The notes: generated from the sequence alone by a model not told the origin. A stretch of DNA of 61,018 nt from a virus (IMGVR_UViG_3300009506_000029:1-61018), one strand, 5' to 3'; shown: positions 23,676 to 43,037, counted from the stretch's first letter. A program made the numbers and translations.

Positions 23676-23706
23676 TCTCTAATTTTTGGATCGCCTGTAC
23701 GTTATA
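23676..23706 (+). promoter_or_regulatory. Putative phage-sigma promoter 1
   Basis: TCTCTAA-N17-CGTTATA followed by GGAGG RBS. Confidence 0.75.
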
Positions 23707-23724
23707 GACAAGAGGGAGGACGTT

Positions 23725-24084
23725 ATGAAACGAAACACTGGCCCCGCCCCGCTGCCGGGCGTCACGATCGAGGATGACGGCCTGTCCGTGCGCGGATTCG
23801 CAATGCTCGCGCTCAGCGCCGGAACATTGATATTGTCCATCGCGATCGCGGTGGCCATCTGGCGTATCAGCGCCGGCATCAAGTGGGCGCTGATCCTCCT
23901 GGCCAGCGGCAGTGCCGCCGAGATGGCCTTCGTCGGCCTGGGCATCTATCGCCGTCACGAGCTCGCCGGTCGCGCCCAGCTCGTTGAGGCCCAGGGCCGC
24001 GCAGACGAGGCCCGCGCGCGTGGGCAGGCCCAGGTCCTCGCCGCCCGTTTGTCGCACGCCTTGCCCGAACGAGGAGGACGATAA
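23725..24084 (+). CDS. Two-TM membrane protein
   Basis: ATG at 23725 with GGAGG RBS; two hydrophobic helices. Confidence 0.7.
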   Translation: MKRNTGPAPLPGVTIEDDGLSVRGFAMLALSAGTLILSIAIAVAIWRISAGIKWALILLASGSAAEMAFVGLGIYRRHELAGRAQLVEAQGRADEARARGQAQVLAARLSHALPERGGR

Positions 24085-24404
24085 TGGCCCTGGATGTCTA
24101 TTTCAGGCGTGACATAGCCAACATCCTGCGGGCAACAGCCTGCGCCAGCGAGGGCGCCGCTGGCCTGGCGCTCGAGCTGCTGGGGGACGCCAGTCTGGTC
24201 GATGACGCCACGCTGAGTGGCGCCGGGGTCCCACAGGAACGGCTGCTGCAGGTCTACCGCCAGGGCGTGCGACATGCGCTGGTCTCGGTGGGACTCGCGT
24301 TCGGCCTCGAACCCGTAGGGATCGCCGCCCCACCCCGCCCGGGTGTCTCCCCTCCCCTGGCCGGCCTGCTCTGGGCCGAAGCCCCGCCGAAGGCCGAGCG
24401 ATGA
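24084..24404 (+). CDS. Hypothetical protein
   Basis: GGAGG RBS; coupled start. Confidence 0.65.
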   Translation: MALDVYFRRDIANILRATACASEGAAGLALELLGDASLVDDATLSGAGVPQERLLQVYRQGVRHALVSVGLAFGLEPVGIAAPPRPGVSPPLAGLLWAEAPPKAER

Positions 24405-24592
24405 CAGACCTGGACTCCTTGCTTGACGTACTCCTCCCAGTTTTCGCGATCTCGGCCATCCTGCTGACGGGGTTCAACCTGCTTTGCACGCCCCGCTCGC
24501 ACCGGAAAGCCCGCCGGGCGCTGCGCCGGCAGCGGCGTGATACCCGGAGGGAGGCACGGCGAAAAGCGCGGGAGAAAAGCAAAGATGAATAG
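24401..24592 (+). CDS. Small TM protein with basic tail
   Basis: ATGA overlap; one TM segment plus an Arg-rich C-terminus. Confidence 0.55.
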   Translation: MTDLDSLLDVLLPVFAISAILLTGFNLLCTPRSHRKARRALRRQRRDTRREARRKAREKSKDE

Positions 24593-24660
24593 AACAAATG
24601 TCCTTGACTTGGACCTTGTCATTTTGGTACAATGTGAAAAGCTGACATCTTTTGTCAGCT
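24591..24660 (+). promoter_or_regulatory. Promoter with LexA-like box and CTGACA-N5-TGTCAG operator
   Basis: AGAACAAATGTCCT at 24591-24604; TTGACT-N18-TACAAT at 24604-24633; AGCTGACA-tcttt-TGTCAGCT at 24640-24660. Confidence 0.7.
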
Positions 24661-24690
24661 TATCCCGCCGGGTACTATAGGGAGACATCG

Positions 24691-24981
24691 ATGCCCTTTG
24701 CTATGCAAGACACCCTATTCGGCGGCCCGCCTGTCGTTTCCGGTGACGTCATTACTCGCCTAAAGTACATCCTCACCGAACACCTCAAGGCGCGCGATTC
24801 CTACACAGCCGCAATAGCCCCCTGGCTCGAGCTCGATAGACTGAGCCCTGCTCTGCGTCAGGCCCTGCCTGGCAACCCCGGCCATCCACAGCTTGCGAGC
24901 TGTGTGATCGCGCCAGCCGCTTTCCAGAAATGGTTCGTCCGCCACGCCACAGCACCCATCCGGCAGGACAAGGGAGATTAG
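24691..24981 (+). CDS. Hypothetical protein
   Basis: ATG at 24691 with GGAG RBS, downstream of a promoter. Confidence 0.55.
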   Translation: MPFAMQDTLFGGPPVVSGDVITRLKYILTEHLKARDSYTAAIAPWLELDRLSPALRQALPGNPGHPQLASCVIAPAAFQKWFVRHATAPIRQDKGD

Positions 24982-24983
24982 AT

Positions 24984-25011
24984 GATTCGGTTTATGATCC
25001 GAACGTAAAAA
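24984..25011 (-). promoter_or_regulatory. 28-bp dispersed motif copy
   Basis: Reverse complement ...ACGTTCGGATCATAAACCGAATC. Confidence 0.75.
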
Positions 25012-25054
25012 GGCCGGATCTGAAGGCCTCTTGGGGGAGAGTTCAGATCCGGCC
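25012..25054. terminator. 13-bp stem hairpin with A-run on the left (minus-strand terminator-like)
   Basis: GGCCGGATCTGAA...TTCAGATCCGGCC. Confidence 0.55.
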
Positions 25055-25163
25055 GCCACACCGGGGGAAAGGTGCAACGAATCTCGCTGCCGTGTAGTCA
25101 TCCCTTCACCTTTCCTGGACACATTATAACAGTTTTTTAACCGAGGCACAAGGAAGGCTCTAA

Positions 25164-25469
25164 ATGGACAGAAAAAGCATCAAAAAGTACATCGGATTTT
25201 TGCTGGCCGAGTTGGGCTGGGGATCCCTGCTCGCGCTCTTTTTGCAGCATACTCGCCCTGGGCAATACCTGGCCAACCGGCGGGCCTGGCTCGCAGTCGT
25301 GATCGGCGTCGCCGGCACGCAAGCCATCTCGCTACCTGTCGCCGGTGGACGGGGCGTGATCGTGGGCACCCTCGCCTTCGCCTTCAGCGCGATCGGCATA
25401 GTGGCCCGCTCCCTGGTCAACGAGCAGCGCCTGGAAAGGGTTCTGCACGATGCCACGCACAAAACCTAG
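25164..25469 (+). CDS. Three-TM small membrane protein
   Basis: Hydrophobic segments; AGGAAGG RBS. Confidence 0.6.
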   Translation: MDRKSIKKYIGFLLAELGWGSLLALFLQHTRPGQYLANRRAWLAVVIGVAGTQAISLPVAGGRGVIVGTLAFAFSAIGIVARSLVNEQRLERVLHDATHKT

Positions 25470-25740
25470 ACCCTACACCCGTTGGGCTGCGCTGGATGCA
25501 ATTCGCGACGTCGACGGCATCCGTGCGCTGACCGAGACCATGATCGAGCGAATGCTGGCCGGCACGCGAGAGGACGAGCTCGCCGAGATCGTTCTCCATA
25601 TCCGCCAGCTCATTGACACCCTGCGCGATCGGCTGCTCACCTTTCGCGACGGCCCCGACCTGGAGCAGATCGTCGAGTGGGTGTTTCAAGACGAGGCGTT
25701 GCTCTGCCTGATCGTGCATAGGCTAGAAGAGGACGAGTAA
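25450..25740 (+). CDS. Hypothetical helical protein
   Basis: ORF with phage-like codon usage. Confidence 0.55.
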   Translation: MPRTKPRPYTRWAALDAIRDVDGIRALTETMIERMLAGTREDELAEIVLHIRQLIDTLRDRLLTFRDGPDLEQIVEWVFQDEALLCLIVHRLEEDE

Positions 25741-25774
25741 CGCATTCAGACGAATCATACGTAAAGGCATCACC

Positions 25775-26929
25775 ATGGACGAGCAAAACCAATCCTTCTC
25801 TTTCCGTTGGGGCATAGACGTTCTCGACTGTGGATCGACCAGCTTCCCGAACCATTTCTGGCGGGTCTATCACCAGGTCCTGACCAAGGAGGAGTGGCTC
25901 TTTATCTGCCATCTGGCCACCTACAAGTACGAGTCCGGGCGCGGTGAATGCCGCCCCAGCCTGCACACCGTCGCGGCAGAGATGGGCTACAAGAACGTGC
26001 GCTCTGTCCAAAAGCTCCGCGCGGCGCTCGAAGAGAAAACGTACCAAGACGCCCCTTTGCTCGTCGTTCGCGCCCGTACAGGTCACCCCAACCTGTACGA
26101 CTTTAGCGGGCTCAGCCGGTGCCTGGTCGCGCTCAGCCTCCAAGAAGGGGATGAATCCCAGTTCACCCCTGAACCACAGTTCGCCCCCCCCATGAATCCC
26201 AGTTCATCCCCCCATGAATCCCAGTTCATCCCCCCCATGAACTGTGGTTCGCCCGAAGAATCAAATCAAGATCAAATCAAGAATGATGATCATGATGGAT
26301 CTGCCTTGACTGATTTGATCGATCTGGCCGGCTTGCATTCCAAGACAGCGCGAGCCATCCTCGCTCATTATGGGGCAGAGGGTGCGACTCGCTGGCTCGC
26401 TTTCGTTCTCGACGAACACAAGGCCAATCCCGCCGCTTACCTGTACACCTGTTGTGTCAAAAAACACGATCCGCCTCCGGCCTCGCTCCACCTTGTCGAC
26501 GCGCAGTCTATCCTGGCCCGTATTCGGCAGACCGACGAGTCTACACCGTCCGAGCCGCCGCCCTGGGCTACATCTCTTCCCGAGCCGCCGCTCGAGATTC
26601 GGCAATACTGGCGCGCTTGCCAGTCTGAGCTTGAACTCCAAATGACCCGCGCCAGTTATGATACCTGGATCAGATCGCTCACCATACAAAGCCTGGATCG
26701 TGATGCCTGCACGGCCACGCTCCAGGCGCCCAACTCCTACATTGCCGAATGGATCACCAAGCGACTGGCGGCGCCCATCATCCGCACAATGGCCGGCGTG
26801 GCCGAGCTCGACGCCGATGCGTTCACGTTCACATGCACGGTGGCCGCCTCGGATCGAGACGCGGCCGAGGAGGAGGCCGTCGACCAACCTGCACCGGAGG
26901 AAACTGTGCCGGAGGAGATGAGGTTTTGA
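25775..26929 (+). CDS. Replication initiator: N-terminal wHTH plus C-terminal DnaA N-terminal-like domain
   Basis: CRPSLHTVAAEMG wHTH; WRACQSELELQMTRASYDTWIR...APNSYIAEWITKRL (DnaA_N-like); internal iterons. Confidence 0.85.
   Translation: MDEQNQSFSFRWGIDVLDCGSTSFPNHFWRVYHQVLTKEEWLFICHLATYKYESGRGECRPSLHTVAAEMGYKNVRSVQKLRAALEEKTYQDAPLLVVRARTGHPNLYDFSGLSRCLVALSLQEGDESQFTPEPQFAPPMNPSSSPHESQFIPPMNCGSPEESNQDQIKNDDHDGSALTDLIDLAGLHSKTARAILAHYGAEGATRWLAFVLDEHKANPAAYLYTCCVKKHDPPPASLHLVDAQSILARIRQTDESTPSEPPPWATSLPEPPLEIRQYWRACQSELELQMTRASYDTWIRSLTIQSLDRDACTATLQAPNSYIAEWITKRLAAPIIRTMAGVAELDADAFTFTCTVAASDRDAAEEEAVDQPAPEETVPEEMRF
26151..26251. repeat. Iterons / probable replication origin inside the initiator gene
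   Basis: ATGAATCCCAGTTCA at 26151, 26192 and 26214, variants at 26169 and 26237, then A-rich ATCAAATCAAG x2. Confidence 0.8.
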
Positions 26930-27162
26930 TGTACACCCTCACCCCCGCACAGGAACGTATCGTCGACGGCATCCGCACCTACTGGGACGAGAACCACATT
27001 CCGCCCACCGTGCGCGACGTGCGCGACCAGGTCGGCCTGGCCTCCACGGCCACCGTGCAATACCACCTCGACAACCTCGAGGACCTCGGCGTCATCGAGC
27101 GCACGCCCGGCGCGATGCGCTCGATCCGCCTTGCACAACCACATACAGGAGGTATCCAATGA
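26929..27162 (+). CDS. LexA DNA-binding-domain-only protein
   Basis: LTPAQERIVDGI...PPTVRDVRDQVGLASTATVQYHLDNLEDLGVIER...RSIRL; no peptidase domain. Confidence 0.85.
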   Translation: MYTLTPAQERIVDGIRTYWDENHIPPTVRDVRDQVGLASTATVQYHLDNLEDLGVIERTPGAMRSIRLAQPHTGGIQ

Positions 27163-27965
27163 CCACCCCCACCCGCTACGGCTGTATCTACCAGCCCGCC
27201 GGCCGTGCTGCTGAATACGCCCCCTGGGCGCTCAACCTCTATCGGGGCTGCGACCACGGTTGTGTTTACTGCTACGCGCCTTCGATTCTAAGGATGGATC
27301 GTAGCACGTTTCACGCCGCCGCCGCTCCGCGCAAGGACATCCTGCACAAGGTCGAGCAGGCTGCCCGCCTGGCCAGCGGCCACGTCGAGCGCGTCCTGCT
27401 TTCGTTCACCAGCGATCCCTACCAGCATCTGGACGCGCAGACCGGCATCACGCGCCAGGCGATCGAGATCCTCCACCGAAACGGCATCCAGGTCACCATC
27501 CTCACCAAGGGCGGCGCCCGCTCCATGCGCGACCTGGACCTGCTCGGCCCCGGCGACGCCTACGCCATCACCCTCGCCGTCCGTGAGGAGCGCCGCGCCG
27601 AATGGGAGCCCCACGCGGCCCCGATCGCCGAGCGCGTCCTCGTGCTCCAGGAGGCCTGCCGGCGCGGCCTCGAGACCTGGGTCTCGTTCGAGCCGGTCAT
27701 CTGGCCGCACGACACCTATGGTCTGTTTGTGCTCGTCCACGAGTGGATCACCCACTGCAAGGTTGGCCCGCTCAATTACGTCGGTCGACTGCCGGATCGC
27801 CTGAAAAGCCAGGTCCCTGCCCTCACCGACGCCGATTGGCGCACATTTGCCGAGATGTTCCAGCATTTCTGTCATCGCGTCAACGTGGAGTGCTACCTCA
27901 AGCAAGAGCTGCGGGACCGGATCGCGCAGGCTCCGCCGGACGATCCGAAAGTAATGAGATTATGA
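27159..27965 (+). CDS. Radical SAM protein (SplB/Rv2578c-like)
   Basis: NLYRGCDHGCVYCYA, SDPYQ, ILTK, SFEPVI. Confidence 0.88.
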   Translation: MTTPTRYGCIYQPAGRAAEYAPWALNLYRGCDHGCVYCYAPSILRMDRSTFHAAAAPRKDILHKVEQAARLASGHVERVLLSFTSDPYQHLDAQTGITRQAIEILHRNGIQVTILTKGGARSMRDLDLLGPGDAYAITLAVREERRAEWEPHAAPIAERVLVLQEACRRGLETWVSFEPVIWPHDTYGLFVLVHEWITHCKVGPLNYVGRLPDRLKSQVPALTDADWRTFAEMFQHFCHRVNVECYLKQELRDRIAQAPPDDPKVMRL

Positions 27966-28276
27966 ACACAATCGCAATGGGCACCTCGCCCCACACTATC
28001 CGTGCTCTCAACTACTGGCCCCCCGGCACCGGCAGCAAGGCTTGCGTCCTGGCCATCTTTCGCCGTGCCTGCCTCGACTGCGTCCAGGGCTCGCCCGAGC
28101 AGGCCGCCGACGCAGTCCTCTTTCTCTGCAGCGACAACGCCGAGAACTGGGCCACCTGGCTCGACGTTCCCGTCGAGGACCTCGTCGCCCTCGCTCGCCG
28201 CTGCTGGGCCTACACCCGCGCGCGTTTTCACGAGCTGACCCTGGATGATCTCCAAGGTCAAGGGCTAGACGACTGA
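27962..28276 (+). CDS. Hypothetical protein
   Basis: ATGA-coupled start at 27962. Confidence 0.5.
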   Translation: MNTIAMGTSPHTIRALNYWPPGTGSKACVLAIFRRACLDCVQGSPEQAADAVLFLCSDNAENWATWLDVPVEDLVALARRCWAYTRARFHELTLDDLQGQGLDD

Positions 28277-28611
28277 TGCACGTTTACCAGATGGGCGATT
28301 TTATCGGCGGCGTGCCGCAAGGCCGGACGCACGCCCGGCATAGGTACGACACCTGTCCCCGCTGTGATCAGCGCAAGCGCGCAGATGCCAAACTGTGTAG
28401 AACGTGCAGCAACAAGCAGCGCACGATGGACCAGGCCGAAAAGCTAGATCGGCACGCCCGTTTCGAGCTCGCTCTTGCCTCCGGCTGCTACACTCTCGAC
28501 GAGCTGCGCGCCCGGGCGCGTGAGGGCAGGTTGCCGACCCGGGGCGAGATTCTCTGCAAGCGCTGGTGGAAGGTCACCGGCGAGGCATTGAATGAGGAGG
28601 GTACATTGTGA
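28276..28611 (+). CDS. Zinc-finger-like hypothetical protein
   Basis: CPRC...CRTC. Confidence 0.6.
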   Translation: MHVYQMGDFIGGVPQGRTHARHRYDTCPRCDQRKRADAKLCRTCSNKQRTMDQAEKLDRHARFELALASGCYTLDELRARAREGRLPTRGEILCKRWWKVTGEALNEEGTL

Positions 28612-28802
28612 GCGACATCGAGATCGTCCGCGCCTGCTTGCAGCATTGGCGCGGGTTTGCGCTGGGCCTGCGTTACGCTGGCTTGATGGAAAAGCTGAAT
28701 GAAACCGAATGCGCGATCGAGGCCCTCAACCGGATCGCCTCCCCGCGCTTTACCTGGGAGCCACGCGAGGATGCGCCCTCGACCCAAGACGCGCGGCAAT
28801 AA
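28608..28802 (+). CDS. Small hypothetical protein
   Basis: GGAGG RBS; coupled start. Confidence 0.55.
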   Translation: MSDIEIVRACLQHWRGFALGLRYAGLMEKLNETECAIEALNRIASPRFTWEPREDAPSTQDARQ

Positions 28803-28833
28803 AAAAGCGGCGTGTGTGTCCGCACGCCGCTTT
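28801..28833. terminator. Bidirectional intrinsic terminator
   Basis: AAAGCGGCGTG...CACGCCGCTTT between convergent genes. Confidence 0.8.
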
Positions 28834-28851
28834 AGGGAGCTCTTTAACAAC

Positions 28852-29538: not shown

Positions 29539-29572
29539 GGTATCCTCCTCTGGTGAGTGCAAGCGCACAGCG

Positions 29573-29869
29573 TCACGACTCGCGCAGGACATGGTATCCA
29601 GGCCTCGGCTCGTCGTAGGTGAAGGGAGCATTGCCGGTCGGGGAATCGCCCTCGATCCACAACAGGTCATTGGGCGTGCAGCCCAGGGCGTTGCAGATGC
29701 GCTCGAGGACGTCGAGGGTGATGCCAACCTGCTCGTTATTTGCCATCCTCGATAACGTAGACGTGGAGACCCGGGCTTGTTCGCTCAACAGTCTATAGGT
29801 CACTCTGATACCCTGACGATCGCCGGCTATGGCCATCTGAGACCGTAACTTGAATCTAGCCTGACCCAT
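29573..29869 (-). CDS. XRE-family (HTH_26) repressor
   Basis: LSEQARVSTSTLSRMANN...LDVLERICNALGCTPNDLL. Confidence 0.88.
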   Translation of the reverse strand: MGQARFKLRSQMAIAGDRQGIRVTYRLLSEQARVSTSTLSRMANNEQVGITLDVLERICNALGCTPNDLLWIEGDSPTGNAPFTYDEPRPGYHVLRES

Positions 29870-29902
29870 AGTTTCCTCCCTCGGGTATTGACTATCAAGC
29901 CC

Positions 29903-30013
29903 AGTATACCATAATCTGTCTGTCTATGTCAATACATACCACGCGCCAATAGGGCCACTTTTCCCATCTGCACAAATTGCCTCTTGACAAGACATATCGA
30001 ACTATGGTACAAT
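29903..30013. promoter_or_regulatory. Divergent promoters (genetic switch region)
   Basis: Minus strand TTGACA(29932-29927)-N18-TATACT; plus strand TTGACA(29984-29989)-N18-TACAAT(30008-30013). Confidence 0.75.
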
Positions 30014-30165
30014 ACTATCGATGGGCCGATACATTTCCATCTAAAAAGAGAGGCCGGGTGCGCCAACACCCAGCCTCAGCGCCAAGAATCAAAACCAGTC
30101 ACAGTCAAGACCCTGGCAGCCACATGATACCACACCAGGCGGTCAGGGTCAAACAGGAGGACCCA

Positions 30166-30717
30166 ATGCTGACCACAGGCCAGCCGCTGACCGCCAATCA
30201 GCGCCAAAAGCTCACCGACTTGCAGCCGTATTTAAAGAGAATCGCGCACAACATCGTCGCCACGCACTACTCCGGCCAGGACCCCGACGACCTGCTCCAA
30301 ACGATGAACGCGGCCATCTGCGAACAAGCCGCCCGCGCCCCCGAGTTCCTGGACCAGACCCCCGGCTACATCACCCGCAAGGCCGCCTGGGCCGCCCGGG
30401 ACTACTGCCGGCACGAGCAGTACGGCCGCAACCTCGCGACCCTCAGCCTGGACGCTTCCGGTCCCGACGGCGACAGCTCGCTCGCCGAGGTCATCCCCGC
30501 CCCGCTCGCCGACCTCGATCTGCCGATCGACGTCGCCCGCGCCCTGGCCACGCTCAGCCAGAAGCGGCAACAGATCGTTGCGATGCTGGCCGCCGGCCTC
30601 CAGCGCAAAGAGATCGCCGCACACTTTGGGGTCAAATCGGCCACATTGGCGTGGGATTACCAGAAGATTCGGTCTGCACTACAGCCGGTCTACGCGGCCG
30701 TGCAGGCAGGGAGGTAG
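30166..30717 (+). CDS. Phage-encoded sigma70/ECF-like sigma factor
   Basis: Region 2 (DPDDLLQ...YITRKAAWAARDYCR) and region 4 (LATLSQKRQQIVAMLAAGLQRKEIAAHFGV); AGGAGG RBS before ATG at 30166. Confidence 0.82.
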   Translation: MLTTGQPLTANQRQKLTDLQPYLKRIAHNIVATHYSGQDPDDLLQTMNAAICEQAARAPEFLDQTPGYITRKAAWAARDYCRHEQYGRNLATLSLDASGPDGDSSLAEVIPAPLADLDLPIDVARALATLSQKRQQIVAMLAAGLQRKEIAAHFGVKSATLAWDYQKIRSALQPVYAAVQAGR

Positions 30718-30720
30718 ACG

Positions 30721-31509
30721 ATGGAACCCACATCCGCTTCGGTCTACACATTCGAGTTTCGCTGGCAAGACGCCCATCACCAGACCCAACTACGCAAGCG
30801 CTATGTGCCCATCGCCGAGCTGTGGCCCAAGTTTGACCTCGCTGCCGACTGGCGGCGAGGTGGCAAGCCCAGCGATGTCCGCACCGTCTCCTTTTACGGT
30901 CCCGGGATTTCTCGCTCGCTCTGTGATGAGCTCGCGCGCGACCGCCTGCGCGAGGTGCTCGAGCCGCTTGGCCTCGTGCCCCTGGAGCCGGCCTATGTCG
31001 GCCTCCTTTGGGCCAGGCTCGACGGTGAGGACGGGTACCACCTCTACAAGGTCCGCTCAGAGAGCGTGATACTGGAGGGGTTTGAGAGACCCTACCTGAT
31101 CCACCACGGCCTCGAGCAGGTGGACGACGACAAGGTCGACCAGGCCTTCTGGTGGGCACAGGAAAAATGCTGGATGTCTCGCGGGATCTGGCTTAACGAT
31201 TGCCCGGCCCTGGTTTTCATGGGCAACCATCTGACATGCTGGCAAGCCCTGGAAGATATTTCCGAGGTGGCGCGGCATTTTGTGAATGGCCGGCCGCTCC
31301 TGGCCAAGGTGCGCTACGACTACCGAGGCAAGGAGAACCGCTATCCCTATATGCGCCCCACCCGGCTGCGCGCGCGCATCCAGGACCTGCGCAGCCGCTA
31401 CCCGCGCGCGACAGAGGACCTGGCCATCGTTCCGACCGAGGTCCTGCGGCGCGAGTACGGTGAAGGCCTGCCCACCGGGATCAGCCCCACGCCGGCGCTG
31501 GCTGGATAG
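30721..31509 (+). CDS. Hypothetical protein
   Basis: GGAGG RBS; 262-aa ORF. Confidence 0.7.
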   Translation: MEPTSASVYTFEFRWQDAHHQTQLRKRYVPIAELWPKFDLAADWRRGGKPSDVRTVSFYGPGISRSLCDELARDRLREVLEPLGLVPLEPAYVGLLWARLDGEDGYHLYKVRSESVILEGFERPYLIHHGLEQVDDDKVDQAFWWAQEKCWMSRGIWLNDCPALVFMGNHLTCWQALEDISEVARHFVNGRPLLAKVRYDYRGKENRYPYMRPTRLRARIQDLRSRYPRATEDLAIVPTEVLRREYGEGLPTGISPTPALAG

Positions 31510-31594
31510 ATTCAGATTCGGATCATAATCCAAATCGCTTGACTTGGACAGCGCGACTTTGATATGATAGAGTCGCAGATAGAACAGAGGTTCT
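31509..31594 (+). promoter_or_regulatory. 28-bp motif, promoter and perfect LexA (SOS) box
   Basis: GATTCAGATTCGGATCATAATCCAAATC at 31509-31536; TTGACT(31539)-N18-TATGAT; AGAACAGAGGTTCT at 31581-31594 over the RBS. Confidence 0.8.
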
Positions 31595-31597
31595 AGT

Positions 31598-32302
31598 ATG
31601 GAAGACAACACGATGCTGATTACCAAGCTGGTCCTCCGGCCCGACAACCACGTCGATCTGTACGGGCGCGGGCACAAGTACAAAGACCTGACCCTCTTTG
31701 ACGCCACCGACCTGGCCGACGTCGGTATCGACGTGTCCGATCTGCAGCCCGGCGTCGAGACCCCGTGCCGGTTCATAGCCGAGTACGAGCTCTCCGACAA
31801 GCTGAACCAGTCGGGCAACCCGTACAAGGACGTGGTCGCGCTGCGGCCGGTGGGTGGGGGCAGCGTCCGGCAATCCGCGCCGGCGTCGGCCCCGGCCGGC
31901 GACGCGATCCTGGCCGAGCTGCGCGCGATCCGCGCCGAGCTGGCTCGGATGCACCGACTGATGGCCCAGGCGCTGGCCTCTGGCAGCTTGGACGACGCGC
32001 CCGGTACTGTCGACGTCGAGCCCACCGAACCGATCCCGGACACCGACGAGCCGCCGGACGAGGACGGCGCGGAAGTCGTGGAAGCCGCCGGCGCCACACC
32101 GCATCCGCTCAGCGATGCGATGGCCAAGCGGATGTTTATGTCGATGGCCGGCGATGCTGTCCGAGGCGGCGTGGACCACGCCCAAGTCAACACGCTGATG
32201 GCCGATGCGCGCACCACCACCGGCTGGCGCGACGCGCTCGAGGCGCTGCAGGCGCTGATCGAGCAGGCCGACGATCCCGAATCGGAGCTGGAGGCGGTAT
32301 GA
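31598..32302 (+). CDS. Hypothetical protein (probably SOS-controlled)
   Basis: 234-aa ORF behind the LexA box; beta-rich N-terminus and acidic linker. Confidence 0.7.
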   Translation: MEDNTMLITKLVLRPDNHVDLYGRGHKYKDLTLFDATDLADVGIDVSDLQPGVETPCRFIAEYELSDKLNQSGNPYKDVVALRPVGGGSVRQSAPASAPAGDAILAELRAIRAELARMHRLMAQALASGSLDDAPGTVDVEPTEPIPDTDEPPDEDGAEVVEAAGATPHPLSDAMAKRMFMSMAGDAVRGGVDHAQVNTLMADARTTTGWRDALEALQALIEQADDPESELEAV

Positions 32303-32943
32303 GTGAGAGGCCGATCCTGTTCAGCGGAAAGATGGTACGGGCCATTCTCGATGGACGAAAGACACAGACCCGGAGAGTGATCAAGCCGCAACACATCAAG
32401 CTCGACGGGGGCGGACATCCGTACATTGATATGGGCCATCCTGACGAGTGGGATGGTGCTGGTTTACGTCGCGACGTTCGCTGCCCCTACGGTCAACCAG
32501 GCGATCGCCTGTGGGTGCGCGAGACGTGGGCAACGCCCGGTAACTATGACGACATCAAACCGTCCGAGCTGTCCGCGTCTTGCTTCACGCACGCAGATCT
32601 AGCCTACCGCGCCACGGAGCCGTACGGAGATGCATACTACAGGTGGCGTCCATCCATCTTTATGCCGCGTTGGATCTCGCGCATCACACTGACCGTTACG
32701 AGCGTGCGCGTACAGCGAGTGCAGAATATCGTGCCTATGGACTGCTACGCCGAGGGCGCCTACACGGCGCAAGACATCACGAACGCCTATCATGGCCTGC
32801 GCTGCTGGGGCCAGCAGCTAGAGATAGAGTTTGCTTTGCAGTCATTCAAGCAACTATGGAACTCGATCAACGCGAAACGCGGATCTGGGTGGGATACTAA
32901 CCCCTGGGTGTGGGTAATCTCATTTGCGCGAGATACACTCTAG
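32299..32943 (+). CDS. ASCH/PUA-related phage protein
   Basis: RPILFSGKMVRAILDGRKTQTRR, GDRLWVRETW, WRPSIFMPRW, NPWVWVISF. Confidence 0.85.
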   Translation: MSERPILFSGKMVRAILDGRKTQTRRVIKPQHIKLDGGGHPYIDMGHPDEWDGAGLRRDVRCPYGQPGDRLWVRETWATPGNYDDIKPSELSASCFTHADLAYRATEPYGDAYYRWRPSIFMPRWISRITLTVTSVRVQRVQNIVPMDCYAEGAYTAQDITNAYHGLRCWGQQLEIEFALQSFKQLWNSINAKRGSGWDTNPWVWVISFARDTL

Positions 32944-32974
32944 TCTCTAACTTTTGAGGCGCCCATTCGTTATA
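32944..32974 (+). promoter_or_regulatory. Putative phage-sigma promoter 2
   Basis: TCTCTAA-N17-CGTTATA. Confidence 0.75.
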
Positions 32975-32999
32975 AGGCAGACCAAACCAGGAGACGCCA

Positions 33000-33653
33000 A
33001 TGGCAACACTACGAGTCGCACAGATCAACCCATCGTCCTACGTCGACGGCCCCGGCCGGCGCGCCGTGCTCTACCTGGCCGGCTGCCCGATCCAGTGCCC
33101 AGGCTGCCAGTCCCGGCACCTGTGGCCAGAGGACAACGAGCCCGGTCACGCCGGGCTCGCGATGGACGTCGACGAGGTGGCCGCCAGGCTGCTCGACACC
33201 GGCCTGCCCGTAACGATCTCAGGCGGAGAACCCCTCGCGCAGGCCGCCGCGGTCGCCGAGCTGCTGATCGAGCTCAGGATCCAGCAGCCCGAGGTGCACA
33301 TCGTCGTCTACACCGGGTTCGTGGTCGAGGACATTCTCGACACGCTGACCCAAGCGACGCCCGAGATTGGGGTGATCCTCCAATTCGCCAACGTCCTGGT
33401 CGACGGCCCGTTCCAGCCCGAGGACGACCACGATTGGGTACAGTGGCGCGGGTCCCGCAACCAGCGCCCGATCGATCTACGCGCTACCTGGGCGCAAGCC
33501 TGGCGATTTCTCGCCCTGCTGGACTGGGACACGCCGACTCTGACGGTCACCACAGACGGCGATCTGGTTGGCGCGGCCGGTACGATGGCCGAGCTGTTTG
33601 AGCCGGAAGCCGTGACCCCCGCGCGAATGTGCGGCCAGACCAAACCTGTGTAG
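33000..33653 (+). CDS. NrdG-like radical SAM / 4Fe-4S activase-family protein
   Basis: VDGPGRRAVLYLAGCPIQCPGCQS, TISGGEPL, YTG, LVDGPF, RGSRNQR. Confidence 0.9.
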   Translation: MATLRVAQINPSSYVDGPGRRAVLYLAGCPIQCPGCQSRHLWPEDNEPGHAGLAMDVDEVAARLLDTGLPVTISGGEPLAQAAAVAELLIELRIQQPEVHIVVYTGFVVEDILDTLTQATPEIGVILQFANVLVDGPFQPEDDHDWVQWRGSRNQRPIDLRATWAQAWRFLALLDWDTPTLTVTTDGDLVGAAGTMAELFEPEAVTPARMCGQTKPV

Positions 33654-33680
33654 TTGTTTCTCCTCCTGTGGATAGAGGAA

Positions 33681-33708
33681 GCCGGGGTGGGGTGGCGCCC
33701 ATCCCGGC
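33681..33708. terminator. Hairpin after the radical SAM gene
   Basis: GCCGGGGTGGG...CCCATCCCGGC. Confidence 0.45.
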
Positions 33709-33728
33709 CCCTCGAATCGCCAAGTCGG

Positions 33729-33787
33729 TCTCTAATTTCCGGCGCCGTCGCGCGTTTTAGATTCAGATTCTGAACCTAATCTGAATC
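33729..33787 (+). promoter_or_regulatory. Putative phage-sigma promoter 3 directly followed by a 28-bp motif copy
   Basis: TCTCTAA-N17-CGTTTTA at 33729-33759; GATTCAGATTCTGAACCTAATCTGAATC at 33760-33787. Confidence 0.75.
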
Positions 33788-33804
33788 ACACACAGGAGGA
33801 TATT

Positions 33805-35106
33805 GTGAGCGCCAGAGCCATACTAGAGGACTTGATGGATACGGACGCAGTCATAGAGGAAGCCGAGAACATCGTCAACCGGCGCCGGCGCGAGACCGCC
33901 GATCGCCTGGGCGTAGACGAAAGCAAGGTACACACGCACCGCCTCGAGCTGCGCAAGCTCCGCGAGGCTGGCCTGCTGATCGATCTCGACATCCACGGCA
34001 TCTCGATGTTCAGCGTCCGCACCACCTACGCTGAGCTGGGTATCAGCGCCGAGGACGTGCGCACCAAGCGGCTGCGCGCCGGCAGCAAAGACCTCTTCCC
34101 CGACTATAGCCGGAAACTCCGCTCCCTCGAGGCCCGCGCCCGCCAGAACCTGGCCAAGTACAGCCACGTCATCCCCGCGTTTGGCCAGTACCGCTGGCTG
34201 CCCTGGACAGCGTACCCCGAGTTTCGCGAGCAGCACGACCTGATCCTGGCCGAGCTGGCCGCGACCAAGGCGGAGCTGATCGGCAGGTACGATGCCCTCT
34301 ACGAGGAAAACCGCGCCTACTTTGAGCAGGTCGCCCTGCGCGCCTGGCGGGATCTGCGCGCCGGGTTTGCCGACCCGGACCACGCGATGATCGTCACCAC
34401 CGACCATACGGAGTTTGGCCCGGGCGAAGAAGGCCGCTTTGTCGAGTACGTGGTCCAGAAGGCGCTGGGCCGGATGCCTCTACCTGACGAGATCCGCGAC
34501 AGCGTGCGGATCGACTACAAAACCTCGATCCTCTACTCCGAGGCCGAGATCGCCGCCGACCAGGCCGCACTGGAGCAGGCCGAGGCCGAACGCGCACAAG
34601 CCCAACTCGCGCACGCCGAGGCTGCCCAGGCCGCCTTCGAGATCGAGCTTCAGGAGCGCGAGGCGGAGAGCCAGGCCCAGGCGCGGCTCTCTGCCTACCG
34701 CCGCGCCGAGCTCGATCATGCCCGGAGACAATTGGCTGAGATGGGCAGCCCGATCCAGGATGCCCTCGACGGCCTGCGCGCCAACCTCTACGACGCCGTC
34801 CACACGCTGCTGGCCGGCCTGCGCAAAAACACGACGTTCCGCGGCAAGGCCGGCGCCAAGGCCGCCGATCTCTATGCCTACTGGCAAAAGCTGAACGGCG
34901 GCCTGCTGCAAGACGTCGACCTCGAGCAGGCGCTGGCCAGCCTGGACCGGGAAATGCAATCGTACCAGGCAGCCGGTACGGAAGCCCGCCAGGTGCGGAT
35001 CGGCGACATCGAGGCTCAACTCACCGAGATCGCCACCCTGACCGCCGAGTCCGCCCGCCGCATTCGCCGCGAGTCCGACAGCCGCGCGTCGATGCTGGAG
35101 CTATGA
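33805..35106 (+). CDS. DUF3150-like protein with coiled-coil C-terminus
   Basis: LIDLDIHG...ELGI...AGSKDLFP...EARARQNL...FGQYRWLP pattern; AGGAGG RBS. Confidence 0.6.
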   Translation: MSARAILEDLMDTDAVIEEAENIVNRRRRETADRLGVDESKVHTHRLELRKLREAGLLIDLDIHGISMFSVRTTYAELGISAEDVRTKRLRAGSKDLFPDYSRKLRSLEARARQNLAKYSHVIPAFGQYRWLPWTAYPEFREQHDLILAELAATKAELIGRYDALYEENRAYFEQVALRAWRDLRAGFADPDHAMIVTTDHTEFGPGEEGRFVEYVVQKALGRMPLPDEIRDSVRIDYKTSILYSEAEIAADQAALEQAEAERAQAQLAHAEAAQAAFEIELQEREAESQAQARLSAYRRAELDHARRQLAEMGSPIQDALDGLRANLYDAVHTLLAGLRKNTTFRGKAGAKAADLYAYWQKLNGGLLQDVDLEQALASLDREMQSYQAAGTEARQVRIGDIEAQLTEIATLTAESARRIRRESDSRASMLEL

Positions 35107-35107
35107 A

Positions 35108-35653
35108 ATGGACTCAGTTCAACTGGACTTTCTATCGGAATTGCACCTCCCGCCCGTCTGGGTGGCACCTATTCCCGGTGGATATGGACATTGGTGTTGT
35201 CCACACTGTAGAGATGCGTCTCGTGGTTTTGATGCATCTCTTTCATTCTCAGACAATCACCGCCGGATAGGTCACTGCCGCTATTGCAGCTATGAACACC
35301 AGTTCGATCAGCCATACGGCCAAACCCCGAATCATTATCCTGAGACACATCAGGAGCCTAGGAGTCTGACGCGTGTTCGCACTGGATTTCCGAAAGTCTG
35401 CCCGGCGGCTTACACCGACCTGGTTTGTGGGGCCAATTGCGAATCGTGCGCATGCTGCCAAGTCGATGCGCGCCTGCATTGGCGCTGTGACCACCCAGGC
35501 TATCAGCAAGCTCCTGGCATACACTGGTGCTTGGGATGCGGCATCGAGCTTGGCCCTTGGGCGGAGGCCCATCACTGGCCCTATTGTGGTGGGCCAACCA
35601 ACCGATGCTTGAGAGATGCTGATACCGTGGAGACCTCAGAAAGGACATGTTGA
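35108..35653 (+). CDS. Cys-rich hypothetical protein
   Basis: Multiple CxxC pairs. Confidence 0.55.
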   Translation: MDSVQLDFLSELHLPPVWVAPIPGGYGHWCCPHCRDASRGFDASLSFSDNHRRIGHCRYCSYEHQFDQPYGQTPNHYPETHQEPRSLTRVRTGFPKVCPAAYTDLVCGANCESCACCQVDARLHWRCDHPGYQQAPGIHWCLGCGIELGPWAEAHHWPYCGGPTNRCLRDADTVETSERTC

Positions 35654-35845
35654 ATGGACGAAAGCGCCCGCAAGCGATTTGCTGACAAGTTCGGCCTGCC
35701 CTCAGGGCAGGTCCGAACGTTCGACGAGCTATCTGCTCACGAAAAGGAGGACGTGCGTCGCTGCTATTCCCTGCACAATGCACGCCTCTACGTCTACGCG
35801 GTCAAGGCCGCTGGCGGCCTGGTCGTGAAACGGTTCCGGTTGTAG
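35654..35845 (+). CDS. Small hypothetical protein
   Basis: AAGGA RBS. Confidence 0.55.
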   Translation: MDESARKRFADKFGLPSGQVRTFDELSAHEKEDVRRCYSLHNARLYVYAVKAAGGLVVKRFRL

Positions 35846-35887
35846 TCGTTCCGAGAATGTGGATACGCAGAAAGAAGCGGGGGTGAT

Positions 35888-36067
35888 ATGGTTGGGACGG
35901 TGGCGGCAGCACTGTTGGCCCTTTGGATCGTATTCAAGATGATCCAGATCGTGGTGGAATCTGTTGGGAACGGCTGTGCTGGCAGAATATGGGCTCTGCT
36001 TGCGATTGCATTTGGTAGTGCGCTTTTGATCGGGATAGCTTTCTTAGCGCAGGGCGTCAGGTGGTGA
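35888..36067 (+). CDS. Small two-TM protein (below the ORF-track cut-off)
   Basis: MVGTVAAALLALWIVFKMIQ...LAIAFGSALLIGIAFL; GGGGG RBS. Confidence 0.5.
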   Translation: MVGTVAAALLALWIVFKMIQIVVESVGNGCAGRIWALLAIAFGSALLIGIAFLAQGVRW

Positions 36068-36145
36068 TCCGATTGTGACCGAGCCAGCCGAACGGCCCGC
36101 GTCCAAACGTTCCCGCACGCGCGCGGCAATGTTGGAGGTATAAAC

Positions 36146-36463
36146 ATGCTCATTTGGAGCGTCAAGCCCAAGCTCGATCGCACAGTGAAATATCACCTCG
36201 CCCACGGTCTGCGCAGAGCCAGCGTGCGCACCTGGCACCTGGCTCTGCTGCTGGATATGTTGGACCGGTCCCGGCTTGATGCGGCTGTGCACGGGATGCT
36301 TAGACGAGACCTGGCAACAAAGATCGCAAGAGACGCCAGCCGTCTTGAGCACATTCGCCGTACGGCTCTGTCCGCTATTGCCAGATCCGCCGACACGGCC
36401 GATCTGCTCGATGCTTTGCGCCAGATCGCGGCCATAGCCGACCTCGACACTGATAAGCATTAG
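36146..36463 (+). CDS. Hypothetical protein
   Basis: GGAGGT RBS. Confidence 0.6.
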   Translation: MLIWSVKPKLDRTVKYHLAHGLRRASVRTWHLALLLDMLDRSRLDAAVHGMLRRDLATKIARDASRLEHIRRTALSAIARSADTADLLDALRQIAAIADLDTDKH

Positions 36464-36479
36464 GAACACAAGCTGAATG

Positions 36480-36510
36480 TCTCTAATTTCCTATCCGCCT
36501 ATGCGTTATA
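36480..36510 (+). promoter_or_regulatory. Putative phage-sigma promoter 4
   Basis: TCTCTAA-N17-CGTTATA. Confidence 0.75.
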
Positions 36511-36538
36511 TGTGCAACTACCATAGGAGGGACTTACA

Positions 36539-38113
36539 ATGAAGGTGAACAAGTTGACTGCTATCCAACAGCTCGATGTGTTTATCCGCGCTCGATACCC
36601 GGTGATCTGGATCGTCACGCAGGAGGAGAGCCGCGTCGAGTCCGCCGTTCTCGGTCTGCTGGCAACCGGCAAGCACCACCACAAAGAGGCCCTTACCTGG
36701 ACCATCAGCCGGGGCGTGCGGCTGGCCAGCGCGCCCGGCGAGGAGTATGGGCCGCAGGACCCGATCAGCGCGCTCCAATGGTTCGGCACCTACGGGGCTA
36801 CCGAGGACCAGCCCGCCGGCACGCCGGCCGTGGCCATTTTCAAAGACCTCGATCCCTATTTTCAGGACCCGCGCGTGGTGCGGGCGCTGCGAGACGTGAT
36901 TACCGACATCACCAGCACCCAGCGTACACTGATCGTCATCGCGCCGGCGCTGCAGGTCCCCGAGTCCTGCAAACGCCAGGTTGCAGTGATCGATTGGTCG
37001 CTTCCCACCGTCGACGAGCTGGCCGGCATGCTGGACGACTTTATCACCGATCTGCCCACCGCGGTCGAGTGCAGCCTCAACGGCGAGCGCGAGCAGATTG
37101 CCAAGGCTCTCTGCGGCCTGACCTGGTTTCAGGCCCAGTCCGTGCTGGCCACCGCCGTGATTGCCACTGGACGACTGGACGGCGCCGCCGTTGACTTTAT
37201 CATCACAGAGAAGGCGCGGCTCGTCCGGGAGAGCGGCCTACTCGAGTTCTTTCAGCCCGAAGGTCTCCCCGAGATCGGCGGTCTGGACGTGCTCAAAGCG
37301 TACCTGGCCCGCCGGCGCCGGTCTTTCACAGATCAGGCGCGCGCGTACGGTGTTCCGACACCCAAGGGCCTGCTCCTTGTTGGCGTCCCCGGGTGCGGCA
37401 AGTCCCTGGCTTGCAAGTCGCTGGCCAAGCTCTGGCGGTTGCCTTTGATCCGCCTCGACGTCGGCGCGTTGATGGGTTCGCTTGTTGGTCAGTCCGAGGC
37501 GAACCTCCGCCAGGCGCTGCAGGTCGCGGAATCATCCAGCCCTTGCATCCTCTGGCTGGACGAGATCGAAAAAGGCCTCGCCGGCGTCAAGTCGAGCGGC
37601 AGCACGGACGGCGGCACGACGGCCAGGGTCTTTGGAACACTCCTGACCTGGCTGCAGGAAAAGACCGCGCCGGTCTACGTGGTAGCCACCAGCAACGACA
37701 TCAGCGCGCTGCCGGCTGAACTGCTGCGCGCGGGGCGGTTCGACGAGACATTTTTCGTCGACCTGCCGACGGCCGACGAGCGCCGCGAGATCTGGACCAT
37801 CCATATCGCAAAGGCCAATCGCGACCCCGCCGGCTTTGATCTGGAGGCGCTCGTGCAGGTCTCCGACGGTTACAACGGCGCGGAGATCGAAACCGCGGTG
37901 GGGGATGCGCTGATCAAGGGGTTTGACGAGGACCGCGAGATTGTAACAGATGATCTGGCCATTGCCATCACCGGGCGTGTACCGTTGACCAAGACGATGG
38001 AAGAGCAGATTGTCGCGCTGCGCAGATGGGCTGCTCACCGCGCCAAACCGGCCAGCCGGCCCCAGGTGGCCCAGGCTGAAGCCAAGAGCCGGGCCGCGAC
38101 GCTGGATCTGTAG
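36539..38113 (+). CDS. Ycf46-like AAA+ ATPase
   Basis: IRARYPVIWIVTQEESR N-domain; GVPGCGKSL, LWLDEIEKG, ATSND, PAELLRAGRFDE. Confidence 0.92.
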   Translation: MKVNKLTAIQQLDVFIRARYPVIWIVTQEESRVESAVLGLLATGKHHHKEALTWTISRGVRLASAPGEEYGPQDPISALQWFGTYGATEDQPAGTPAVAIFKDLDPYFQDPRVVRALRDVITDITSTQRTLIVIAPALQVPESCKRQVAVIDWSLPTVDELAGMLDDFITDLPTAVECSLNGEREQIAKALCGLTWFQAQSVLATAVIATGRLDGAAVDFIITEKARLVRESGLLEFFQPEGLPEIGGLDVLKAYLARRRRSFTDQARAYGVPTPKGLLLVGVPGCGKSLACKSLAKLWRLPLIRLDVGALMGSLVGQSEANLRQALQVAESSSPCILWLDEIEKGLAGVKSSGSTDGGTTARVFGTLLTWLQEKTAPVYVVATSNDISALPAELLRAGRFDETFFVDLPTADERREIWTIHIAKANRDPAGFDLEALVQVSDGYNGAEIETAVGDALIKGFDEDREIVTDDLAIAITGRVPLTKTMEEQIVALRRWAAHRAKPASRPQVAQAEAKSRAATLDL

Positions 38114-38116
38114 AGA

Positions 38117-38160
38117 TCTCTAATTTTGGTCTGCCCCATACGTTATAGGGGCAGACCAAA
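38117..38160 (+). promoter_or_regulatory. Putative phage-sigma promoter 5 embedded in a 13-bp inverted repeat
   Basis: TCTCTAA-N17-CGTTATA; TTTGGTCTGCCCC...GGGGCAGACCAAA flanks the -10. Confidence 0.75.
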
Positions 38161-38173
38161 CCAGGAGGATCAC

Positions 38174-38584
38174 GTGAGCAACTATCGCAAACTCAAAACA
38201 CAGTACACCAGCCGCGTGCACCTGCGCGCCGCGCTCCAGGCCACCGGCGTTATTTTTGAGGAAGTTCGACCGGGACAGACAGAGTCAACTCTCTATGGCT
38301 ACGAGAACGACGAACGCTCAGAGACCGCGACCTTTGTCGTTCGTCGCGATCAGATCGGGCGCCTGTCCAATGACATCGGCTGGCACTGGGACGGATCGCA
38401 GTTTGTCGAGATCGTCAGCGAGTGGGATCACCACGTGAGCAAGTGCTCAGAGATTCGCCAGACCGTGCGCCGCGAGTACGCCTACGCTGCGACCGTGTCG
38501 CAGGCGCAAGCCAAAGGCTACCGGACCGAGCGGATCGACCTTCCCACCGGCGTCATCCAGATCAAGGTCACAGGGAGGATCTAA
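38174..38584 (+). CDS. DUF1257 (Ycf35-like) protein
   Basis: MSNY..LKTQ...L.AAL, LYGY, NDIGW...F..I.SEWD, EYA, AQAKGY; GTG at 38174 with AGGAGG RBS. Confidence 0.8.
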   Translation: MSNYRKLKTQYTSRVHLRAALQATGVIFEEVRPGQTESTLYGYENDERSETATFVVRRDQIGRLSNDIGWHWDGSQFVEIVSEWDHHVSKCSEIRQTVRREYAYAATVSQAQAKGYRTERIDLPTGVIQIKVTGRI

Positions 38585-38808
38585 TGCAAGAGTTCACACT
38601 GACCATCACGATTAGCGCAGATGGCGAGACCGTCGAGGGCGAGGTGTCTGGTATCAAGGGCAAGCGGTGCTCCGACGTCGCCGCGCTCTTGGACAAGGTG
38701 GGCGAGGAGACCGAGCACCGCCACACCGCGGACTATGACGCGCCCGAGCCGGTGCAGCTCCACATCGGATCGGCGGCCGGCACGTTGAGCCTCGGGCGGG
38801 GCGGGTAG
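38584..38808 (+). CDS. DUF2997 protein
   Basis: ITISADGETV..EV.GIKG..C...T.DY; coupled to DUF1257. Confidence 0.78.
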   Translation: MQEFTLTITISADGETVEGEVSGIKGKRCSDVAALLDKVGEETEHRHTADYDAPEPVQLHIGSAAGTLSLGRGG

Positions 38809-39046: not shown

Positions 39047-39073
39047 ACGTGGGGGGAGGAAAAAGGAGTTTCG

Positions 39074-40402: not shown

Positions 40403-40429
40403 ATTAGAATTATGATCCTAATGCAGATG
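40402..40429 (-). promoter_or_regulatory. 28-bp dispersed motif copy
   Basis: Reverse complement CATCTGCATTAGGATCATAATTCTAATC. Confidence 0.75.
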
Positions 40430-40440
40430 CGGAGGCGGTA

Positions 40441-41648: not shown

Positions 41649-41659
41649 CCAAGAGTTCC

Positions 41660-43031: not shown

Positions 43032-43037
43032 CAGCCT

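Follow-up and report, generated by a model that had tools for sequence, protein, structure and literature searches.

The virus record IMGVR_UViG_3300009506_000029 (hereafter the window, meaning this whole stretch of 61,018 nucleotides) carries five near-identical copies of a bipartite element, TCTCTAA-N17-CGTTWTA, together with a gene for a divergent sigma factor of the extracytoplasmic function (ECF) type. We propose, with a probability of about 70%, that the five sites (P1–P5; Table 1) are promoters of one phage-specific class that is read by the phage sigma factor. According to this proposal, host RNA polymerase with its primary sigma factor would transcribe the phage sigma gene from a TTGACA/TACAAT promoter, and the ECF-type sigma would then redirect the core polymerase to TCTCTAA-N17-CGTTATA, switching on a delayed set of genes in five units: three small genes behind P1, an NrdG-like radical SAM gene behind P2, a DUF3150-like gene and small genes behind P3, a Ycf46-like AAA+ ATPase gene behind P4, and DUF1257 and DUF2997 genes with about 5 kb of further genes behind P5. 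The AAA, DUF1257, DUF2997 and DUF3150 genes make up a conserved module, which is supported independently of the promoter.

Five bipartite sites precede genes of the phage

The pattern TCTCTAA-N17-CGTTWTA matches exactly five times in the whole record, all five on the forward strand and none on the reverse, and a reversed-pattern control gave no match on either strand. It was never found in 100 dinucleotide-preserving shuffles (mean 0.00, largest 0). Allowing two mismatches added no site (shuffle mean 0.07, largest 2), and a looser scan (spacer of 15–19 nt and up to three mismatches in total) found only three-mismatch matches elsewhere. All five copies are intergenic and co-oriented with the next gene, the start codon of which lies 18–45 nt beyond the second block (Table 1) and is preceded by a GGAGG-like ribosome-binding site (RBS). 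The spacer is constant in length and variable in sequence. Two blocks at fixed spacing, intergenic position, co-orientation and short distance to the RBS—the layout of a sigma-dependent promoter—are thus found at each of the five sites, and no other promoter-like hexamers were found there. The first-pass annotation of this DNA had described the motif as five exactly spaced plus-strand copies before an RBS, which the pattern scan and the shuffles bear out. Its description of the downstream genes as non-adjacent fits only the 23676 site (P1), because the other four sites lie within 32944–38147, in one contiguous gene block of 5.2 kb.

Inverted repeats surround two of the sites. The second block of P5 is bracketed by a perfect 13-bp inverted repeat (38125-38137 / 38148-38160), which is kept in the closest relative, G001, with a compensatory change, and that of P4 by a 9-bp inverted repeat (89%, 36495-36503 / 36522-36530). 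A 10-bp inverted repeat (33760-33787) directly follows P3. The P5 repeat could be a protein site; as an RNA structure it could arise only in transcripts that read through from the AAA gene.

The element is conserved and co-varies among related phages

Orthologous positions in relatives that carry the sigma gene hold the same 7-N17-7 element, with letters that are uniform within a genome and different between genomes. There are 14 further sites, one of them with an 18-nt spacer: five in G001, four in L052, two in L051/L053 and three in L054. G001 (79,955 bp; AAA protein 84% and sigma factor 73% identical to those of the window) has orthologues of 18 of the 39 queried plus-strand proteins in the same order (tblastn). 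Its sites at 10429, 20418, 21620, 24089 and 25725 stand before the orthologues of the 106-aa, radical SAM, 433-aa, AAA and DUF1257 genes, respectively, and read TCCCTAA-N17-TGTTATA (CCCCTAA in one), the two letter changes relative to the window being identical at every site. Four TCTCTAA/CGTTATA sites are present on the metagenome contig L052, where they precede the radical SAM, 433-aa, AAA and DUF1257 genes. In L051/L053 (sigma factor 47% identical), ACCCTAA-N18-CGTTATA precedes the gene for a 262-aa protein, and ACCCTAA-N17-CGTTATA precedes the radical SAM gene. L054, a syntenic contig of a Dehalococcoidia metagenome-assembled genome (MAG) with a 43% identical sigma factor, has three TTGGACA-N17-TTTATAT/G sites (shuffle mean 0.24), one about 340 nt upstream of the radical SAM gene and the others directly before the 433-aa and AAA genes; in the whole 2.3-Mb MAG, all three matches with 0–1 mismatches are on this one phage-like contig. 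Sites orthologous to P2 precede the radical SAM gene in G001, L052, L051/L053 and L054. Among 2.9 million viral contigs the extended motif had multiple matches only in G001, and 16 other contigs had one match each. Contigs L047, L049 and L050 are too short for judging whether the motif is present.

This positional conservation in four further sigma-carrying lineages, with co-varying letters, supports at the sequence level the suggestion of the first-pass annotation that these sites form a promoter class particular to the phage and linked to its sigma factor.

The distance from the P2 site to the radical SAM gene is 190–480 nt in G001 and L052, and the two genomes share a leader behind it, CACCTACCCGG.C.GAGACGCGGACTGACCACCGA (G001 20449-20500, L024; L052:3211-3260), which the window lacks and which has no Rfam match.

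A second motif, the 22-nt quasi-palindrome GATTNGGATCATAATCCNAATC, occurs with up to three mismatches at 17229, 19902, 24984, 31515, 33760 and 40402 of the window, with none in shuffles, and a degenerate copy lies near 36455. Most copies follow a stop codon, and one fills the 5′ leader behind P3. G001 has at least eight copies at up to three mismatches, including those at 2916, 19628 and 24065, and in both G001 and L052 one copy lies just upstream of the P4 site. Possible roles for the motif are that of an operator bound by a dimeric regulator and that of an RNA hairpin.

The phage sigma factor and its gene

Residues 20–173 of the 183-aa sigma protein align with positions 7–162 of the 165-position TIGR02937 profile (E-value 4.9e-6), and in PHROGs the protein matches the sigma family phrog_1740 (8.6e-7); there was no match to Pfam Sigma70_r2. 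In the AlphaFold2 (AF2) model (14 relatives; predicted local distance difference test, pLDDT, 77.9), four helices (residues 10–88) are followed by a disordered linker (89–114) and four more helices (118–182), which is the predicted sigma2-linker-sigma4 build without regions 1 and 3. A Foldseek search of the PDB with this model returned the ECF sigma factors L, E and H first (6dv9_F, 6jbq_F, 6kon_F), the best match being sigma L 6dv9_F (E-value 3.9e-3, probability 1.00, template modelling (TM) score 0.30, a low value that is expected because the two domains are mobile). In BFVD phage sigma factors came first, with 'Sigma70-ECF' as the top match (E-value 3.1e-5, probability 1.00) and four matches at E-values of 1e-3 or less. 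Sequence and modelled fold thus point to a divergent ECF-type sigma factor, which is predicted to bind core polymerase and to initiate transcription. The earlier label of an ECF-like sigma factor is upheld by the fold and by the full-length profile alignment, though the scores stay below the curated cutoffs (see below).

The sigma gene lies about 180 nt downstream of a putative sigma70-type promoter, TTGACA-18-TACAAT, and a TTGACA...TAnnnT sequence stands upstream of the sigma gene also in G001, L051 and L054, that is, in four of the six lineages inspected, the window included. The visible parts of the corresponding stretches in L047 and L049 have no equivalent. The intervening leader was aligned for the window (30014-30165), L023:18146-18303, L047, L049 and L054; its two conserved hairpins (Table 1) suggest RNA-level regulation of sigma synthesis. 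In the two leader sources scanned, the window and L054, the leader has no Rfam family.

Which factor reads the element?

Several observations weigh against the phage sigma factor as the reader. It scores 26.3 bits against TIGR02937 (curated cutoff 42.9) and 20.8 bits against Pfam Sigma70_r4_2 (cutoff 25.7), and its PDB matches reach E-values of just about 4e-3 and TM scores of about 0.3. G001 and L054 have lost the CGT of the second block. Contig L048, the sigma factor of which is 63% identical, has none of the four motif versions and no module genes in 5.5 kb. In both L052 and L049 the sigma frame is broken by a single additional base between the sigma2 and sigma4 parts, which puts region 4 in the +1 frame (L052:200-300; L049:1990-2090); a genuine frameshift, a pseudogene and an error of assembly are all conceivable. 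Even so, L052 retains four intact sites. The motif of L052 is that of the window, yet several residues of the region-4 helix differ between the two, and there is therefore no simple residue-to-base code. Finally, the co-variation would also fit another co-evolving phage factor.

Such another reader—a further phage regulator, for example an activator or the 262-aa protein encoded next to the sigma gene, or else a host alternative sigma factor, the phage sigma having other targets—is in our judgement rather unlikely. It would be compatible with the co-variation, which any co-evolving reader would produce, with the intact sites of L052, and with the position of the 262-aa gene, which lies beside the sigma gene in all lineages for which that region is covered; the palindromic motif, moreover, represents other DNA- or RNA-level signals in these intergenic regions. 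However, the asymmetry of the element, its fixed 17-nt spacer, its co-orientation with the genes and its distance to the RBS are typical of sigma recognition and not of a dimeric regulator, and the sites lack other promoter-like hexamers. Searches with the 262-aa protein in Pfam, PHROG, NCBIfam, PADLOC and Atlas gave nothing, hence no match to a DNA-binding family, and the L054-type motif is missing from the remainder of its MAG. Far less probable still is that the repeats are no transcription signals at all, being recombination or mosaic-boundary sequences, or hairpins for RNA processing or stability at gene ends. The inverted repeats around P4 and P5, with the compensatory change in G001, would suit this explanation, as would the start of P2 directly after a stop codon and the lack in G001 of the phrog_874 gene that precedes P2. 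But such inverted repeats are found at only two of the five sites and not in L052, both conserved blocks form the single-stranded loop or flank rather than the stem, and the spacer varies in sequence while its length is fixed. Nor do the sites match an Rfam family: a scan of the window, L052, L024 and L054 at the gathering threshold gave a borderline tRNA match and nothing else.

Promoters read by the phage sigma factor remain the reading that we favour. The asymmetric two-block element, with fixed spacer, co-orientation and promoter-like distance, argues for a reader encoded by the phage and evolving together with its sites, and the few near-identical copies, their absence elsewhere in one cellular genome and the letter changes between genomes likewise argue for a co-evolving phage-borne reader. 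The region-4 recognition helix is most divergent in L054, which is also the lineage with the most different first block. As far as can be judged from sequence, the sigma factor is the only recognisable candidate for this role conserved in all five lineages. ECF promoters have a T-rich tract after the first block, a CGT opening the second block and 17 nt between the two, a layout that the window sites resemble.

Genes downstream of the sites

The 119-aa membrane gene that is first behind P1 is absent from G001 and encodes a 48% identical protein in L054; the 106-aa product of the next gene is the conserved P1 target (Table 1). Behind the P1 genes, at 24604-24680, lies a sigma70-type promoter, TTGACT-18-TACAAT, followed directly by a 9-bp hairpin, AAGCTGACA/TGTCAGCTT.

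The family calls of the first-pass annotation for the AAA, DUF1257, DUF2997 and radical SAM proteins are confirmed by profile scores (Table 1). The radical SAM protein behind P2 scores 99.5 bits against TIGR02491 (the NrdG equivalog), below the cutoff of 126.1, and the whole record has no NRDD match that would represent an NrdD partner.

The assignment of the 433-aa protein behind P3 to DUF3150 is supported by profile–profile comparison and lacks a direct Pfam match. The protein does not match PF11348 at an E-value of 0.01 or less, nor is there any such match at 10 or less over the whole record, and none of 28 homologues carries DUF3150. Yet the profile of its family aligned with that of six phage DUF3150 proteins, those that pass PF11348 in AAA-bearing phage contigs, at a probability of 95.3% (E-value 2.4e-8, 176 columns; hhalign), and among its Atlas neighbours DUF3150 is found in 15–18% of members. 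Its AF2 model (pLDDT 72.9) matched only generic helical bundles (Foldseek PDB E-values of 0.33 or more), and a wide structure search (VIA) gave Z-scores of 11.3 at most, for residues ~297–418 only, within the range common for helical bundles. An ESCRT-III-like identity is unsupported, the one CdvB2 match having a probability of 0.08.

The AAA protein behind P4 combines a classic-clade AAA domain (residues ~245–505), most like the D2 domain of Cdc48/p97, with a family-specific N-terminal domain (1–244), the combination expected of a Ycf46-like protein. Its residues 1–260 are 27–31% identical to AAA proteins of about 500 aa from cyanobacteria (E-values 1e-19 to 1e-26, 96% coverage), which we take to be Ycf46 from their abbreviated source names. 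As a candidate for a known defence system the locus failed, since PADLOC gave only generic IetA/TRIP13 AAA-domain matches.

Behind P5, corrected gene starts (GTG 38174 for DUF1257, ATG 38584 for DUF2997) make the DUF2997 start overlap the DUF1257 stop. A complex of the two products was predicted with a score of 0.86, the best of three controls scoring 0.00; of 80 solved complexes 58 attain this score, as do 2 of 110 mismatched pairs, though these counts apply only roughly to our custom alignments. Between runs, contact agreement was 98% or higher, and partner pLDDT did not fall below 76. The modelled interface joins the DUF1257 C-terminal strand to the N-terminal one of DUF2997, and the two proteins are thus predicted to bind. 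Profile searches for solved relatives gave no match for DUF1257 and only E-values of 0.3 or more for DUF2997. Over the further genes downstream (38813..43400), no new promoter or terminator rose above shuffle level.

A module shared with large phages

In 11 other AAA-bearing viral contigs, DUF1257 was found seven times by Pfam and an eighth time (L008) by phmmer, and DUF2997 six times; DUF3150 occurs in the same six contigs as DUF2997 (6 of 12 with the mycobacteriophage Firecracker included). The five records with a completeness of 90% or more all carry DUF2997 and DUF3150; DUF1257 was detected in four of them by Pfam and in the remaining one, G003, by phmmer. The four genes of the six contigs are on one strand, within ~1–9 kb of the AAA gene; the order in L009, DUF3150-AAA-DUF1257-DUF2997, is that of the window. 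The six contigs are not all independent, L010 and L012 being near-identical and the DUF3150 proteins of L008 and L017 being 59% identical. This clustering bears out the grouping of the four genes proposed by the first-pass annotation.

In the large phages the genes between DUF1257 and DUF2997 matched no family, a LAGLIDADG insert in L009 excepted. In L009 (11586-13026), AAA and DUF1257 are separated by two inserted genes, one for an NYN-domain protein and one for a LAGLIDADG homing endonuclease. The ~265-aa neighbours of the AAA proteins in L011 and L013 are 36% identical to each other and unrelated to Firecracker gp99.

The first-pass annotation went further and joined all motif-driven products (membrane, radical SAM, DUF3150-like, AAA, DUF1257 and DUF2997 proteins) in one co-regulated machine. 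The clustering of four genes in the six large phage contigs and the predicted binding of DUF1257 to DUF2997 speak for such a machine, as do the contiguous AAA–radical SAM–DUF1257 genes of G009/G010, where the radical SAM gene lies in between, and co-regulation, if the promoter reading holds. However, Fer4_12 is found beside AAA in only two of the 11 other contigs (G009/G010, one lineage), the remaining nine having it far away or not at all; G001 lacks the membrane gene and would have the 106-aa gene as the immediate target of its site; P5 also heads about 5 kb of other genes, RusA and Dam included; and Corndog-type mycobacteriophages have the AAA protein without detectable partners. One physical machine made of all these products is therefore unlikely. 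What stands is the AAA/DUF1257/DUF2997/DUF3150 group, while the radical SAM protein is tied to it in one further lineage only and the membrane cluster has no such backing. The idea that the shared promoter defines the members is not supported, as P5 also heads RusA, Dam and other genes; together with the loss of the membrane gene in G001 and the rare clustering of the radical SAM gene, this argues that promoter sharing marks a timing class. It is gene clustering across phages that marks the module.

In the mechanism that we envisage, a DUF1257–DUF2997 heterodimer would work with a classic-clade, substrate-threading AAA+ enzyme. Tentatively, and at somewhat less than even odds, the 61-kb phage and phages of 150–210 kb may share a four-part machine of a Ycf46-like AAA+ unfoldase, the DUF1257–DUF2997 heterodimer and a DUF3150 helical protein, homologous to the ycf46/ycf35 products of cyanobacteria and plastids, which an NrdG-like radical SAM protein without NrdD would join in some lineages and which in the clade of the window would be under a private, co-evolving sigma/promoter pair.

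Genome context

At about 62% G+C and with a direct repeat of 144 bp at its termini, the window is a complete virus record and represents a 61-kb tailed, siphovirus-like phage. Its virion genes are on the minus strand, all without a copy of the motif, and the plus-strand block 21547-43400 encodes a partition protein, an HTH/DnaA_N protein, two radical SAM proteins, the sigma factor, AAA+, DUF1257, DUF2997, RusA and Dam. The ALP/ParM-type partition protein and the HTH_36/DnaA_N protein hint at a plasmid-like prophage state. The second radical SAM protein, 65% identical in G001, is encoded outside the motif-driven block. Positions 30000-40000 have no DNA-level match to named phages (megablast), and the only lead to a host is the Dehalococcoidia label of the MAG that contains L054, the binning of which may be wrong. 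A tRNA match on the minus strand (20330-20393) scores 29.4 bits against an Rfam gathering score of 29, and ARAGORN found no tRNA. Imperfect tandem repeats with periods of 18 nt (52250-52924) and 69 nt (47897-48298) lie within large minus-strand genes, probably tail or fibre genes; a PHROG match, a weak one, was found only for 50827-53103.

Table 1. Coordinates of the sites, genes and other features of the window
Feature	Coordinates	Strand	Remarks
P1, TCTCTAA-N17-CGTTATA	23676..23706	+	18 nt before ATG 23725; orthologous G001 site at 10429
P2, TCTCTAA-N17-CGTTATA	32944..32974	+	25 nt before ATG 33000
P3, TCTCTAA-N17-CGTTTTA	33729..33759	+	45 nt before GTG 33805
P4, TCTCTAA-N17-CGTTATA	36480..36510	+	28 nt before ATG 36539; orthologous upstream regions aligned
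P5, TCTCTAA-N17-CGTTATA	38117..38147	+	26 nt before GTG 38174
Putative sigma70-type promoter TTGACA-18-TACAAT with TG extension	29984..30013	+	11 of 12 positions
Sigma leader, two hairpins	30014..30165	+	RNAalifold, five lineages: 21 pairs, seven with compensatory changes
Putative divergent ECF-type sigma factor, 183 aa	30166..30717	+	
262-aa protein, no family	30721..31509	+	orthologues after the sigma gene in G001, L051/L053, L052, L054
119-aa protein, two hydrophobic segments (by eye), no family	23725..24084	+	
106-aa protein, conserved P1 target, no family match	24084..24404	+	63% identical orthologue directly after the G001 site
63-aa protein, one hydrophobic segment and basic tail (by eye)	24401..24592	+	
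NrdG-like radical SAM activase, 217 aa	33000..33653	+	Fer4_12 7.7e-26, radical SAM domain, phrog_626
433-aa protein, remote DUF3150 homologue	33805..35106	+	GTG start
Cys-rich 181-aa protein, no family, P3 unit	35108..35653	+	orthologues in G001, L052
Ycf46-like AAA+ ATPase	36539..38113	+	PF00004 2.1e-29, phrog_8638 3.4e-141
DUF1257 (Ycf35 family), 136 aa	38174..38584	+	PF06868, 32.8 bits (cutoff 22.2)
DUF2997, 74 aa	38584..38808	+	PF11211, 28.9 bits (cutoff 24.1)
Further genes downstream of P5	38813..43400	+	RusA 39777-40196, Dam 42518-43009
Actin-like (ALP/ParM-type) partition protein	21547-22554	+	
HTH_36+DnaA_N protein	25775-26929	+	
Second radical SAM protein	27159-27965	+	PF04055 6e-10, phrog_13321
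Portal	13775-15289	-	
Large terminase	15282-16739	-	
Tape measure	55232-59182	-	

Relation to known systems

None of the four parts of the module has a known function. A Corndogvirus AAA-ATPase, Firecracker gp100, is 32% identical to the AAA protein of the window over residues 2–524 (E-value ~1e-77), that is, over the full length; unlike the window gene, it has no DUF1257, DUF2997 or DUF3150 match among its neighbours. A phage DUF3150 protein used as tblastn query has no match in named phages, and the full-text searches made gave no description of a phage AAA/DUF1257/DUF2997/DUF3150 cluster. DUF2997 is noted in some viruses in an excerpt of a preprint (bioRxiv 10.1101/2025.10.13.678797). For cyanobacteria, an excerpt of PMC4284462 gives a DUF2997-ycf35(DUF1257)-fed7 gene cluster, termed cluster g. 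The DUF1257 and DUF2997 genes are adjacent in the window too. In phages, however, the pair is accompanied by AAA and DUF3150 genes, a ferredoxin was not seen, and the lineage of the window and G009/G010 have a radical SAM gene close by. The module recurs in phages that are otherwise unrelated, and as the function of ycf35 and ycf46 has long been open, its compact phage version could make that question testable.

A phage sigma factor with few, well-conserved promoters is an already known kind of switch. For phiEco32 and 7-11, the abstract of PMC4331800 describes promoters of phage-encoded sigma factors as typically well conserved and few in number. The window resembles these phages in having a small, early-expressed phage sigma (as we would predict) and a handful of conserved cognate promoters that would define a later gene class; it differs in that its sigma factor has no close relative in named phages (10-kb megablast) and its virion genes are not under the motif. 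The phiEco32 element is a single block, whereas the window consensus is bipartite. In SPO1 the host primary sigma factor serves the early genes and phage sigma factors serve the later classes, according to an excerpt of PMC13401047. The window differs from SPO1 in that only one sigma gene was found, which seems to serve a single module instead of the middle and late genes as a whole. Bacterial ECF (group 4) sigma factors E, L and H share with the phage protein the predicted two-domain sigma2-linker-sigma4 build and a bipartite promoter with CGT opening the second block. The first block of ECF promoters is usually GGAAC, which the first block of the window lacks; the phage sigma factor, in contrast to bacterial ECF factors, has no recognisable anti-sigma partner, and the CGT is lost in G001 and L054. 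With four diverged versions of the motif at the same gene positions, the five related genomes offer a test set for how a small sigma factor changes its specificity, and the diverged versions of sigma factor and motif are a possible source of orthogonal sigma/promoter pairs.

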